Source: Octopus sinensis
Lineage: Eukaryota
Direction of reading: 5' to 3'
Assembly: GCF_006345805.1 (NCBI RefSeq)
Contig: NC_043013.1
Location: 2,604,001-2,668,000, forward strand
DNA length: 64,000 bases
In this document: positions 7,258 to 58,322 of the stretch, in pieces
How positions within the stretch are numbered: position 1 is the stretch's first letter
How the letters are laid out: each line of letters opens with the position of its first letter
Notes under the pieces: model-generated
Database searches by the model: none
Told to the model about the DNA's origin: nothing
Seen by the model: the letters and a program-made list of their open reading frames with translations, nothing else
Program-made: the position numbers and the translations under genes

Positions 7258-7592
7258 CTTTTATCTTTTACTTGTTTCAGCCATTTGACTGCGGTTATGC
7301 TGGTGCACCGCCTTGGAGAATTTTTAGTCGAATGGAATTGACCCCAGAACTTACTTTTTAAAGTCTGGTACTTATTTTATCGGCTTCATTTGTCGAACCA
7401 CTAAGTTACGGGGACATAAACGCACCGATACCGTTTATCAAGAGGTGGCGGGACACAAACACAGATATAAGCACACAGACACACACTCACACACACACAC
7501 ATACGACGGGCTTCTTTCAGTTTCTGTCTATCAAATTCACTCACAAGGCTTTGGTCTGCCCGAAGACACTTGCCCAAAGTACCACGCAGTGG
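7258..7592 (-). mobile_element. SINE family A, 5'-truncated
   Basis: ttttacttgtttcagccatttgactgcgg ... acgacgggcttctttcagtttc match. Confidence 0.75.
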
Positions 7593-7619
7593 ATATATAA
7601 ATATATATACATTGATAAA

Positions 7620-7693
<74 letters not shown>

Positions 7694-7711
7694 TGTATGT
7701 ATATATGTATG

Positions 7712-7755
<44 letters not shown>

Positions 7756-7766
7756 CATACATACAT

Positions 7767-7852
<86 letters not shown>

Positions 7853-7898
7853 ACATATATGCATGTATGTATGAATGTGTGTGTATATATATATATAT

Positions 7899-8600
7899 AT
7901 TAATCAATATAGGGTGGCAAAAAATTTTGTAGAATTTTTTTGCCACCAGCGGCCTAGTGGGAAAAAATTAAATAGTCATAGACCATTTATAAGTTCAACA
8001 TCAACAATCAAGGAACGGCCATAATAGGCCATTCACCCACTAGAAATAACAGCCAAAGCTTCAACCGCAAAATAACATTAATTCCGCAAACCAGGAGAAA
8101 ATTAAAAAACATTTACCCTGTAATTTCTTATACGATGCACCGTTTCATCTACTGTTTAATGGTAAACTAACCTGATTAAATTAAATCAAGCCAATCTTCC
8201 ATAGGCCCTTAGATTCGTCAGTAAGAAATAGCCAGATCGGAACAGATATTTTCACGAGGCATTTCTGTCCCTGCCTCGGCAATATCTGACCTAAAATTTT
8301 CAAATCATCGCACTCGCGCCAAATTTATCGGCAGCAAATAAATATAAGCCGCCGATTCCATTACGGAATCAACCAGAAAATTCATAATTAATCAATATAG
8401 GGTGGCAAAAAATTTTGTAGAATTTTTTTGCCACCAGCGGCCTAGTGGGAAAAAATTAAATAGTCATAGACCATTTATACAGGGTAAATGTTTTTTAATT
8501 TTCTCCTGGTTTGCGGAATTAATGTTATTTTGCGGTTGAAGCTTTGGCTGTTATTTCTAGTGGGTGAATGGCCTATTATGGCCGTTTCTTGATTGTTGAT
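7899..8600 (-). mobile_element. Non-coding Penelope-like pseudo-LTR insert (direct + inverted repeats, hammerhead)
   Basis: 93-bp identical direct repeat 7899-7991/8387-8479; 121-bp inverted repeat 8000-8120/8480-8600 (1 mismatch); internal hammerhead; (AT)n on both flanks. Confidence 0.8.
8123..8229 (-). ncRNA. Type I hammerhead ribozyme, core intact
   Basis: Minus strand: ATTTCTTA-CTGACGA-ATCTA...TAGAT-GAAA-CGGTGCATCG-TA-TAAGAAAT; 8-bp stem I, 5-bp stem II, near-palindromic stem III, GUA cleavage triplet. Confidence 0.85.
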
Positions 8601-8620
8601 ATATATATATATAGATATAT

Positions 8621-8654
<34 letters not shown>

Positions 8655-9589
8655 ATATATATACACACATATATATGTATATATGCATGTGTATGTATAT
8701 ATACATCCGTGTGTGTGTGCGTGTGTGTGTGTATGTGTATTGCGAGTGATTATATTAAACCATTTATGGCAGAAGCGCAGTGCCCAGTGATGGGCGGGGT
8801 TACAAATTGAACCTTTATTAATTGTACAACAGATACAAATCTTCTTTCTTAATATTACATAATCAGGAGATAAGTATGTGTTAAATTCCATCAAAGTTTT
8901 GGTGAAGGAAGGTTTATCTATAAATCAGATGAAGTGTCTTTAAATGAGTGACGGTAGCAGCATTGTGCAAGAAGATATTTCAAATACTTTAGTGCAGGCC
9001 CAAACTTTGTTTGTATGGTTGATCGGGATTTTGGGTGATGAGACATCTTTGGATCAAGAACAAGAAGACCTTGATTTGCTCCGCATCCTTTCTTAAGCAC
9101 AGATGCCATGTTTCGTCATTAAACTGGTACCACCCTATTATTGTTTCTGGCGCCGCCAAGTCAGCTCTGACTGAGGAGACTTATAGTTAAAAACATTTTA
9201 GCGTTGAACATATATATTTTGTATATCAAGGACTACATTTTCCAGTAAATCATTTTCTTTTCAGGACAGTAGAGAGAATTTGAAGGAATTTCGCAGCTAT
9301 TTCTAGCTGGTCGAGTCATCATAGACTCCCTCTACCTCGTTTAGTATTTGTAGAGTGAGATGGCATTAGATGTGCATTGTTCATGAATAGCGTAATTCCT
9401 AAAGGTTGAATGAAAGTATGCACGTCTCCTTATCCTAGTCAACGTCTAAGATTGTATTGTTCAGGATTAGATGTGGATTTGTAAATCTACAGACGTGAGA
9501 TATATTATCGGTTAAAGATATCGCAGTCGTTAGTGATTCAGAGAAGCCGAGTATCAGTGACCAGGTCTTAAGGAAAGACCCTGATATAA

Positions 9590-9930
9590 CAGTTTCAAAT
9601 CTTGGAACAAAGCTAGTAATTTTAAGGGAGGGGAAAATCGATTATATCGATCTCAATGTTCGACTGGTACTTATTTTATCGATCCTGAAAGGGTGAAAGG
9701 CAAGTCGAACTTGGCGGAATTTGAACTCAGAACGTAAAGAGCTCGCCGTCAGTTTGATACCAACTGATGGCTTCAAATGTATGTACAAGGCTAGCAATTT
9801 CGAGAGGAGGGGTAAAATCGAATACACGGACCCCCTAGTGCTCAGCTAGTACCTATTTTATTGATCTCGAAAGGATGAAAGGCAAAGTCGGCCTCGGCGG
9901 AATTTGAACTCAGAACGAAAAGACGGGCGA
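9590..9930 (-). mobile_element. Two diverged SINE family B copies
   Basis: gaaaggcaaagtcg..ctcggcggaatttgaactcagaacg core occurs twice. Confidence 0.75.
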
Positions 9931-11080
9931 AGTGTCCTTGATACCTAATAATGTAAGATAATATCAATAATAGAACTAAAATGGATATATGATTGTGTAT
10001 TTTCAGTGGCTACAAAATCCCGGTCACGATGCAAATCTCTTAAGATAGAGTATGAACTTAATATATGAAGAAGGAACACGTTTTAATGGAAAATTCCGAA
10101 TATTTAGGAAGTCTTGGAGATAAATATTCAAATAAAGATAAAGAATGAGATAAGAAAATTGGTTCACATACACGCACGCACGCACACACAGACACACACA
10201 CACACACACACACAAACCGATACAAACACACACACACACACACACAAACACTCACACTCGCGCACGTTGCCACTTGCACGCGCGCGCATACAGACACACG
10301 CACGGACGCACGGATACACACACACACACACATGTACAATTAGAAATAAAATTAATGTAAAAAAATATCCACTAACTCAGTTTCCAGGCATGGAAACTAA
10401 ATGGAGAATTAAAGTAAACAAATATATGATAATTTTATGCTTATGAAAGGAATTTCTCTTAAACGAAAGAAAAATAAACATGATTTTTCTCTCCTCTTGT
10501 TTTGTTAAGACATTCTTTGAATTCCTGCAGCTTCCTTCCGTAAGAAAATCTCTTAAAAATAAGAGATACAACTGAGTATTTTCATTTCATGCAATAAATA
10601 TTAATAACTTGATGCAGCCATTCGACGTCTCTTGCTGTGTTTATTTATCCAACTGACGTCGACACACTGTGTCTACCTGTCTAGTCGATGTCTACTTTGT
10701 ATCTATCTATCTATCTAGCCGATGTCTACAGTGTATATTTATGTAGTCGACGTCCTCTCATACTATCTGTCTAATGATGTCTAAACACTGGGACTACCTA
10801 TCCAGCCGATGCCTACACAGTGTCTATCTATCTAGCCGATGTCTACACTGTGTCTATCTGTGTAGCCAATGTCTACACACAGTGTCTATCTAACCGAACC
10901 ATTGTGTCTATTTAATCGACGTCTGCACACTATGACTATCTCACCAAAGTCTATACATCATCGACCTCAGCGACGCCTAAACTTGTGTCTATCAAGCAGA
11001 CGTCAACACACCTATCTATTTACCCGACATCTACACAGGATCTATCAACCTAACTGATAACAGTCACTATCTACCTAACC

Positions 11081-14329: not shown

Positions 14330-15765
14330 ATTTATGTATTTGTCTTTGTCAAATATCTTAAGGCTTGTTTGAAGAGACAAATAATTTTCTTATATTTGGA
14401 GAAGTATTTGAGAAAACACACCATTCTTCTTAATGATGTAATGGCAGTTGCCCCTGATGGCGCATCAGTCATAATTGGTAAACAGCATTTTCATTTTGTT
14501 TTCTAAGAGGAAAAAAAATCCTAATCTATTTTACGTACATTGTGTTTATTCAGACATCTTGTAGCGAACACCCCCAGAAGAAAACTTCACAATATTCTGA
14601 AAACACAAACCAACTTTGTAAAGAAAATGTAAACAAAACCACCCAGTTTTCGATTTATTGCAATATCAATGAGAAGAGTTTCAAGCAGTTTCTTTTCCAT
14701 TCTGAAGTAAGGCAATTTCCCAAAATAGTTTACCCTGACATAATCGGTAGAAAAGGAAAAGAAAAGATATTTAAAAAGTAATGAAGTTTGAAAATCCAAA
14801 CACGTTGATTGTGAGTTGCATTACCCACCAAGAAAACTTGGTTGCAAAAAGCGTTTTCTCTGAACTGCATGACACACTGTATATTGTGGTTAAAGGCATC
14901 AATTCCATCACAGCGAGTGGCAAGTGTGAACATCTGTTCAAGAAGTTTTGTAAAGATCAATATGAAGAACATGTGAACTACTGCGGTTGTCAAAGGGAAA
15001 CTACCTCAAAAACATTTATGCAACTGTTTGACCTTCTCACTAAATTTTTGAAGGACAAATCTGAAATAAGTCGCCTGTTGACAACAGACGGCAAAACTTA
15101 TGTGAACCTCTTGGCTGACATTTTTGAGAATCTTTGTTCTTGAAACAAGCAACTCTAAGGAGCCTCTGGGACGCTCATTAATGCAAAAAACCAAAATCTT
15201 TGGATTTATTACTTTTTTTTTCCGGTACCAATGCAACATATTGGCAATAAATTTTAGCCAATTCTCTTGGTTGAAAAAGTGTGGGATAATTGATGCTTTA
15301 AAGAACGTCATTGTTGGTCACTTGAGAACATTAGTTAATGAATCCAATGTAAGATTTTAGGATCTGAAAACAGAAGAGGAGTTCCCTTCTTTGATGACTC
15401 AGTTATTTCTACTGGGTTTATCCAAAGTGCCAGTGTAATTCCAAGAGGAGCTATCGGAGCCGCAACAAGATGTGTCTGAAAAACTCTTTTCAAAGTCAAG
15501 AGAACCATGATGCAGACGCCTGGAGAAAGGGAAAAGATGTAGCCAAACTCGAGTAATTTAGTAAGGGAAGTATTGATACACTTTCCATCGTCTTATGAAA
15601 TCGAATGCAGATTTAGTGTTGCTACCGGTTGATTACAAGCTAAGAGAAACGACTGAACATCATGAGATGCGGTGATGTAAGTTTAAAACTGACGGAATTG
15701 ACCCCTCAAATCCAACAAATTTGCAACTAGTAGATTTGCTTAACTCAAGGTTTTCACATCTAAGT
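14330..15765 (+). mobile_element. hAT (Buster/ZBED5-8-like) transposase remnants, two fused fragments
   Basis: VAPDGASVIIGK (D motif), HC..., FHSEVR; second copy CITHQENLVAK, VNLLADIFE, and C-terminal FPSSYEIECRFS...KRN..GD..LKLTELTP; many stops. Confidence 0.8.
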
Positions 15766-56830: not shown

Positions 56831-58322
56831 GCTTTTGCATGGCTTCTAATGCTGGAGATGTATTACAGTGTCAGCTGTTCACTAACAGTGAACTAAGGTA
56901 ACACTCCTTATTTTTCGAGCACCTTCCGGAATATTCGAGCGGTGCTGTTTTCTGTAAGTGCTCCACCCTTATTGCTCCATGAACTTCTCAAAATTTTTGT
57001 TCACTGTTCCCAGGGCTCCGACAATTATTGGTACTACCAACACCTTTTTCAGCGACCATAACTGCTTAACCTCCCAAGCTAACCTGTTATGCCTATCAAT
57101 TTTCCTTTCTTCCTTATCGCATACCTTGTCATACCTTGGGCATGCTAGATCTATGACCCAGCATAGTTTGCATTCTTTCCCAATTAACACTATGTCTGCT
57201 TTTCTATTCTCTATCTCATGGTTACATTGAATCATAAAATCCCACAGGAACTTTACATTATCATTTCCGATGATACCTTCGGGTTTATGTTCGTACCACT
57301 TTTTTGCTCTGTCAAGTCCATACTTGTTGCAACGTGTCCAATGCACTATCCTTGCTATATTGTCATGACATCTCTTATATTCTTTCAGGGCTAGTAGCGT
57401 ACATTGACTGGTAATCTGCCATACGGTTTCACCATTTTGTTCACAAATTCTGTATTTATCACTTTCTAATGTGTTGTCTATTCCGTATTTGATGTAATTT
57501 GATGTTACGCTTGCTCTTGGGCAGCACAAATTAGAGCTTCCGTTTCCGGCTTTAAATCACTTTTAGTTATCGATAGCCATTTTTTTTTCTCTGTCTGTCT
57601 TATCTTTAACGTCTCTATGAAATTGTCCATGTATTCTTTACTTTATCCACCTATTTTCGGTTTCGTTCATTCTCAAATCCTTGTACAATGTTTTATCTTT
57701 GCAATCTTCTATCCTGCACAAGCCTGACCTTCTTATTTCCAATAATAGCGATTCTGTGGCATTTTTTTTACATACTATTCTATGTTGTGTTTTTTCTGCT
57801 CTTATGCTATGTTCGCATCCAATCAGTCTTATTTCCCCACTTTTTCTTTGTACATACAGTCTGTCTGTGTCACTTTTTGGGTTGAGTATCCCATATCTAG
57901 TCAGCAACTTCCTTGTCTTTCTGTCTAAGCTGTTTAGTTCATCTACTGTAGTTACCCCTGCTCCATATCTAAGGAGCGAAACCGCTCAGGTGTTGATAGC
58001 TTCACACTTATTTCGTCCGTTTAATTTCGACTTAAGAATCAGTCTCAGTCTGCGCAAGTACTCCACCTTAATTTTTTCTGTCATTTCTTTCTCCATCAAT
58101 TTATCCATTTCCAGTATCCCCAAGTACTTATAGCCCGTCTCTTCTATCTGCTTCATGACCTCCCCCGACGGTATTGCTAGCCTGTCCACACATTTGATTT
58201 TGCCACTTTTAAAGACTAACACACCTCATGTTTTCAGTCCGAACTCCATTCTCATATCAGCACTGAAAGTATACACTTTATCAACGAGGGAACTGACTTA
58301 GGATTCATCTTTACTATAAAGT
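56831..58322 (-). mobile_element. R4/Dong-type non-LTR retrotransposon, 5'-truncated, in (TAA)n
   Basis: RT end (DMRMEFGL, GYKYLGILE, YLRRLRLILKSKLNGRN), DTDRLYVQRK, decayed CCHC (RICEQNGETVWQITSQC), REL domain (LWDFMIQ, ADIV, IDLACP, VPIIVGALGTV); TTA repeats on both flanks. Confidence 0.9.

Follow-up and report, generated by a model that had tools for sequence, protein, structure and literature searches.

Insertions of Penelope-like elements (PLEs) are described as often including an inverted 5′-truncated copy, carrying a tail at one end and lying in (TA)n targets (PMC8557442, PMC3846280). The PLE enzyme of Anolis nicks both strands of AT-rich DNA and initiates reverse transcription internally, at two sites that lie downstream of the hammerhead and delimit the tail; in the same work, insertion in vitro did not depend on hammerhead cleavage, which was protein-assisted (PMC11167929). 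What the hammerhead of PLEs does is treated as an open question (PMC8557442, PMC11167929). Retrozymes are presented in a preprint as PLE derivatives and are proposed to borrow PLE enzymes, based on co-occurrence and homology, mainly in vertebrates (10.64898/2026.07.22.740005). For O. vulgaris, 190 Penelope-like families (6.83%) have been reported, 31 of them recently active (PMC13282606). Two further sources provide general background (PMC8967140, PMC5680766).

We analysed a 64-kb stretch of Octopus sinensis DNA (the window), which contains an insertion built from a 488-nt unit. The unit resembles animal non-LTR retrozymes as described in PMC7229834 and 10.64898/2026.07.22.740005, i.e. it is a non-coding, low-GC, self-paired multi-copy unit with one type I hammerhead and a head-to-tail junction, and its palindromic helix III is predicted to act as a dimer. 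Its length slightly exceeds the 150-450 bp of PMC7229834 and falls within the 51-972 bp of 10.64898/2026.07.22.740005. It differs from these retrozymes by a 58-nt extension on stem II and by the 12-nt palindrome of helix III, and the locus combines 1.19 units with a PLE-type inverted head, an arrangement that we did not encounter in descriptions of retrozymes. By the definition of the preprint, the locus is a monomer (10.64898/2026.07.22.740005).

The likeness to insertions of EN-bearing PLEs (Pen2a_Av, PMC3846280; PMC8557442, Fig. 2; Poseidon PAc, PMC11167929) comprises the inverted 5′-truncated tailless copy, the partial tandem, the AT-rich target and the two ends downstream of the hammerhead, which correspond to the places of reverse transcription start. 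In contrast to those described, the insertion has no ORF, its direct repeat lacks a hammerhead, unlike the usual pLTR, and its two ends are 101 nt apart, compared with 30-40 in the literature. The hammerhead itself shares the type I topology, the palindromic helix III and the preference for a dimer with the minimal PLE hammerheads of PMC4209133, whereas its helix I (8 bp) and its palindrome are longer, helix II has a long extension, and there is no unpaired base between positions 9 and 10.1. Non-autonomous Chlamys elements such as MRC1 are also short non-coding PLE derivatives that have terminal redundancy, form head-to-tail copies and lie in microsatellites; in the description of PMC8557442 they belong to a green-algal clade and mostly lack canonical hammerheads, unlike the 488-nt unit.

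No published description of the 488-nt family or of any cephalopod retrozyme was found; Repbase, Dfam, the library of PMC13282606 (Zenodo) and the preprint supplements may already include the unit, either under a Penelope label or as a consensus without a name. The class of animal retrozymes is already known and the family is likely a further member of it, so that its value is that of a test case and perhaps of a first description in the lineage. The locus joins a retrozyme-type unit with a PLE-type insertion footprint, in a family that is abundant enough for breakpoints to be counted.

Structure of the insertion

Read on the minus strand, the insertion consists of the head (8600-8478), a direct repeat (8479-8387), 157 nt, the hammerhead (8229-8123), 123 nt (8122-8000), 8 nt and the second direct repeat (7991-7899) (Table 1). 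The two 93-nt repeats (7899-7991 and 8387-8479) are 100% identical at a spacing of 488, and the head (8478-8600) is the reverse complement of 8000-8122 with a single mismatch at 8013/8587. To the left lies a long AT/GT microsatellite (about 7593-7900), to the right a short (AT)n (~8599-8613) followed by (AG)n; because (TA)n is present on both sides, a target-site duplication is unreadable. Most of this layout had been anticipated in the original prediction. The identical 93-bp repeat bounding a 488-nt period, the (AT)n surroundings on both sides and the direct contact between the inverted segment, which ends at 8122, and stem I, which starts at 8123, were all recovered. The inverted copy had been put at 121 bp with one mismatch; inversion and mismatch are as predicted, but its length is 123 nt, as the prediction had omitted 2 nt by which the copy overlaps the direct repeat.

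Table 1. Features of the insertion and of its hammerhead (positions in the window)
Feature	Positions	Strand
Whole insertion, 702 nt: inverted head plus 1.19 units (581 nt) of the 488-nt repeat	7899-8600	-
One period of the high-copy non-coding unit, 488 nt	7899-8386	-
5′ copy of the 93-nt direct repeat; the direct part starts here, at unit phase 7991	8387-8479	-
3′ copy of the 93-nt direct repeat	7899-7991	-
Inverted, 5′-truncated head, a copy of 8122-8000 with 1 mismatch; 2-nt overlap with the direct repeat	8478-8600	+
Segment copied by the head; starts directly after stem I and ends at the putative second reverse transcription start (8000)	8000-8122	-
8 nt of the unit absent between the outer end of the head and the start of the direct part; putative twin-priming-like gap	7992-7999	-
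Left side of the target, (TA)n	7884-7900	
Right side of the target, (AT)n	8599-8613	
Type I hammerhead: stem I 8229-8222/8130-8123, core CUGANGA 8221-8215, stem II 8214-8210/8151-8147, GAAA 8146-8143, predicted cut 8131|8130	8123-8229	-
Extension of 58 nt that stem II closes; a 14-bp hairpin is predicted in it (8197-8164)	8152-8209	-
12-nt self-complementary stem III; centre 8138/8137, GC to AU in family variants	8132-8143	-
Predicted helix I extension: 8236-8233 with 8117-8120, beyond a 3+2 internal loop	8117-8236	-

The unit has a GC content of 36.9%, and its predicted fold is more stable than those of 100 of 100 shuffled sequences (z = -5.9). The longest stop-to-stop frame inside the element has 63 aa; the 488-nt unit thus has no coding capacity. 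An ORF of an autonomous PLE (RT plus GIY-YIG) is absent from the element, which is not an autonomous PLE. Across 150 of the 215 frames of the window, no Pfam match to RT or GIY-YIG families was obtained, the four weak matches all concerning other families. Neither a second copy of the element nor tRNA genes were found elsewhere in the 64-kb window, and a bacterial promoter scan was set aside as inapplicable.

Within the 93-nt repeat, a 12-bp hairpin (7913-7948 and 8401-8436) is predicted in every fold and ends ~14 nt from the 3′ end; it is a candidate signal for the start of reverse transcription. A read-through transcript of the locus is predicted to form a 123-bp RNA duplex between 8000-8122 and 8478-8600, a possible substrate for editing or small-RNA formation.

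Footprint and age of the insertion

Letters that are in the minority within the family occur in the window copy at 7989, in both direct repeats, and at 8087, in both inverted arms. The chance that an independent copy matches at the listed sites is about 0.13 and 0.15, when the sites are treated as independent, which is in keeping with one source. A single difference among 216 compared bases indicates a young insertion event. The recent activity that had been proposed for the element accordingly applies to the insertion event, but not to the onward mobility of this copy, which has one hammerhead only.

The outer ends are situated 130 and 231 nt downstream of the predicted cut site. In terms of unit phase, the direct part starts at 7991, 8 nt past the outer end of the head, and the inner end of the head is 8 nt away from the cut. 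One end reaches 101 nt beyond the other (7899-7999), which would be the place of the PLE tail; described tails have 30-40 bp. The 93-nt direct repeat lies at least 139 nt downstream of the cut site and contains no hammerhead. An inverted 5′-truncated copy of the PLE type is present at the 5′ side, and an AT-rich/(TA)n target is present at this one site.

Twin priming is a mechanism known from L1. The geometry seen here is that of twin priming on an RNA of ~1.5 units, the 5′ end of which could have been the hammerhead cut. One contig of run X13 links 7992 to 8207 on opposite strands. It would fit another inversion at this phase, with the 7991/7992 break recurring, its orientation being not certain; if the orientation matches, the X13 head extends past the cut site, which argues against cleavage always setting the end. 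The inversion junction of the window itself is not among the joints listed for run X1. We regard it as rather unlikely that a PLE enzyme carried out twin priming on a retrozyme RNA and that hammerhead cleavage had determined the 5′ end of this template. If thousands of copies were to share the breakpoints, this would be genomic proof of the mobilisation of retrozymes by PLEs, with the cleaved, dimer-processed RNA as the in vivo template.

The hammerhead and its predicted folding

The letters of the hammerhead comprise a stem I of 8 bp, CUGACGA, a stem II of 5 bp around 58 nt, GAAA, the 12-nt palindrome and a GUA ending at 8131. The conserved core elements (CUGANGA, GAAA and the UH site) are thus present in order, helix I is open-ended, and helices I, II and III have 8, 5 and 4 bp, respectively. 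The motif at 8229-8123 is the sole descriptor match in the 64-kb window. For comparison, we scanned 300 locally composition-matched simulated windows, of which 69 contained a match to the loose descriptor; stems of 8/5/4 bp occurred in 0 of the 300. The full type I hammerhead postulated for 8123-8229 was therefore recovered with its layout, and none of the simulated windows had one as good. A search of the covariance-model type, which had been proposed as a check, speaks against the motif, as the curated Rfam hammerhead models gave no match at any threshold tried; the 58-nt extension is a likely cause. Rfam microRNA matches were below the gathering score and were discarded as microsatellite noise.

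According to the predicted folds, the active form is less stable than the minimum by 2.1 kcal/mol for the monomer and by 3.8-4.0 kcal/mol for the direct part, the circle and the whole insertion. The active stem III has a predicted probability of at most 0.04 in the monomer, which likewise counts against the hammerhead. The 12-nt palindrome is predicted to contribute -0.2 kcal/mol as a hairpin versus -17.5 kcal/mol as a two-copy duplex, and a double hammerhead -71.7 kcal/mol versus -54.4 kcal/mol for two monomers, i.e. the dimer is favoured by 17 kcal/mol. Of the double hammerheads described, one of nine predicted dimers was cleaved in vitro (10.64898/2026.07.22.740005). Stem II of the window copy has an A-U pair at 10.1-11.1, compared with the G-C pair that is called highly conserved in PMC4209133. 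Because the locus has a single hammerhead, no monomer would be released by this copy alone, and it is predicted to be a dead-end product unless it is paired in trans. A further predicted hairpin (8089-8065) was dropped, since the majority letter at 8087 would break its pairing.

The unit in sequencing runs

At least half of the sampled words occur in 20 of the 24 runs listed, from 9 studies and with four organism labels (A-D); one sample (S1/P1) may be the source of the window. None of the runs listed as containing the unit is recorded as RNA (for X15 and X17, which consist of contigs, this is a guess), which has no bearing on expression either way. Contigs matching the 488-nt period were collected from four runs (16,349, 608, 189 and 113), and all 29 bins of the unit are covered in each of the four. 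Sorted by likeness, the contigs of X1 fall into groups of 4,843 (at least 99%), 7,151 (95-99%), 3,885 (90-95%) and 470 (lower). These data exclude a single-copy sequence, a finding that had been named as an argument against the original prediction.

The summed contig depth, which is not a copy number, was compared along the unit in X1. It amounts to 2.2-2.8 M at 8341-8374, close to 2.6-3.8 M at 7916-8000, and over the 157 nt upstream of the hammerhead it is similar to that of the direct repeat. The values reach 4.0-4.8 M at 8069-8170, dip to 1.6-2.0 M at 8222-8272, where variants crowd, and return to 2.1-2.8 M at 8273-8374. The wrap-around junction (8385/8386 to 7899) exists in several alleles in X1 and X13, so that in many copies this position must be internal. 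The shares of contigs continuing into unlike sequence are 0, 0, 0 and 0.05 in the four runs. The coverage of the full unit in four runs together with the junction alleles shows a high-copy non-coding family, not just the tail of a long element. As the data are contigs, array length (1.2 units versus many) and RNA ends are unreadable from them; none of the listed contig pieces spans the whole unit, and the locus itself has 1.19 units and one hammerhead.

Among the loose ends listed, at least three X1 contigs depart from the unit at 8232, i.e. 3 nt upstream of stem I; stem II differs in one contig of X13. Both observations are a hint of relatives with the hammerhead end in common, among them perhaps an autonomous partner.

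Motif scans gave 0 matches in viral contigs and 0 and 0 in metagenome contigs. A loose pattern retrieved 63 prokaryotic loci, none of which was similar to the element by BLAST; one of the 63 had a loose hammerhead-like match elsewhere in the locus, which was treated as chance.

Variation mapped onto the fold

Of 98 variant rows from the four runs, 40 were listed, representing 39 variable places. In the fold of the whole unit, 20 of the 40 are unpaired, 13 keep a pair and 7 break one, so that 7 of 20 changes at paired places are disruptive. Position N7 (8217) is the most variable place of the ribozyme among the places listed and is altered in 49-85% of the depth in all four runs. The 11 fixed places of the core do not occur among the 39 variable places listed, for which the probability by chance alone is 0.20-0.40, i.e. 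not significant by itself.

For helices I-III, leaving the extension aside, six of the seven listed changes stay paired, not counting 8137/8138, which are unpaired in the monomer. Pairing is kept by the listed changes at 8126, 8150, 8210 and 8222, and the frequent variants at 8235 and 8236 in the helix I extension retain it as well. Position 8151 stays paired through a change at 8210 (A-U to G-C), the shares being 31/42, 0/5, 32/37 and 29/24% across the four runs. At 8147, a change from U to C (32% in X1) disrupts the pair at the base of stem II except where 8214 is altered too, a position that does not occur in the 40 rows listed. The letters that would pair with the variants at 8147 and 8150, G10.1 and C10.4, were seen by eye in one loose end of X13.

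Positions 8137 and 8138 change jointly from GC to AU, with shares of 2.6/2.6, 0/0, 37/37 and 16/17% in the four runs. They are loop bases in the monomer and pair only in the dimer, and the joint change preserves the palindrome. A double hammerhead predicts natural variation of this kind in the centre of the palindrome. Each compensatory change may go back to a single event, and selection is not required for double transitions at adjacent positions. A lack of covariation in the stems had been named as evidence against the ribozyme. Some compensatory change is present in the form of 8151/8210, but the data are unphased and the correlation of the shares across the four runs is r = 0.92 with p = 0.08. 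Judged from sequence variation, the pattern leans towards a working, dimer-favoured ribozyme, short of proof.

Upstream of the hammerhead, a single hairpin has eight of the 39 variable places listed in its loop or next to it (8262-8270), and two of the three listed changes in its stem break a pair. The clustering of the variable places in or beside the loop suggests that the stem is kept rather than the loop.

Origin of the insertion

The locus is a young insertion of a high-copy hammerhead repeat. We estimate a probability of roughly 75% that this repeat is a non-autonomous, Penelope-dependent animal non-LTR retrozyme, likely copied in by a PLE enzyme in trans. The dependence on PLEs is supported by the inverted head, the AT target and the two start points, all of which match PLE insertions. 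The original prediction had left a choice between a recently active PLE terminus and a retrozyme-like family, and the coverage of all bins in four of four runs, the depth upstream of the hammerhead and the junction alleles favour the latter.

A possible course of events would start with tandem source copies yielding RNA longer than one unit. Neighbouring hammerheads would pair via the 12-nt palindrome and cut at 8131|8130; cutting would free 488-nt monomers, which a host ligase could circularise. A PLE enzyme would nick both strands of the (TA)n target, and reverse transcription would start inside the RNA at two points, at phase 7899 and at phase 8000. The start at phase 7899 would give the 581-nt direct part and that at phase 8000 the 123-nt inverted head, and both would be joined via a 2-nt microhomology with the loss of 8 nt.

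An unlikely alternative is that the locus derives directly from a long autonomous PLE, either as its truncated end or as an isolated copy with an internal deletion, in which case the 488-nt unit would not be self-propagating. An inverted head and an AT target are standard for insertions of autonomous PLEs, the depth in X1 at 8069-8170 (4.0-4.8 M) is about twice that at 8222-8272 (1.6-2.0 M), and the departure of at least three X1 contigs at 8232, among the loose ends listed, would also be in line with such an origin. However, at 8273-8374 the depth is back at 2.1-2.8 M, the four runs cover every bin, and the wrap-around junction is multi-allelic in two organisms. Many shared variants lie upstream of the hammerhead, and a rare by-product would not give such data.

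Spreading at the DNA level, as a satellite-like repeat derived from a PLE end with the hammerhead as an inactive relic, is quite improbable. In its favour, the active form is the less stable one by 2-4 kcal/mol in the monomer, the window copy has A-U at 10.1-11.1, core conservation is not significant, none of the runs listed as containing the unit is recorded as RNA, and local tandem amplification by unequal crossover is allowed in the model of 10.64898/2026.07.22.740005. On the other hand, the copy is dispersed and surrounded by (TA)n, its truncated, inverted head with near-identical arms is the footprint of reverse transcription, and changes concentrate at N7 and include pair-preserving ones. 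It is scarcely credible that the duplicated and inverted parts are an artefact of assembly or of fold-back, in a repeat with microsatellites on both sides. The flanks are of low complexity and the inversion junction is not among the joints listed for X1, the possible source run, but the arms differ at one base, the layout fits described PLE insertions, and the X13 contig joining 7992 and 8207 on opposite strands is compatible with a second inversion, with the reservation about its orientation; the joints listed represent some of the records only.

Neighbouring sequence

The window contains an assembly gap of 100 N, with no N within 7400-9200. A 195-aa frame at 56972-57556 (minus strand) has no Pfam match and two homologs at 62% and 44% identity; it resembles a C-terminal zinc knuckle plus a restriction-like endonuclease of an R4/Dong-type LINE. 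Interrupted frames at 14482-15140 (plus strand), with only a weak unrelated Pfam match below the cut-off, resemble the remnant of a hAT-type transposase. Two diverged neighbouring copies of a SINE-like repeat (81-90%) are located at 9657-9740 and 9839-9923, and a degenerate minisatellite with a period of ~30 nt extends from 10640 to 10941.
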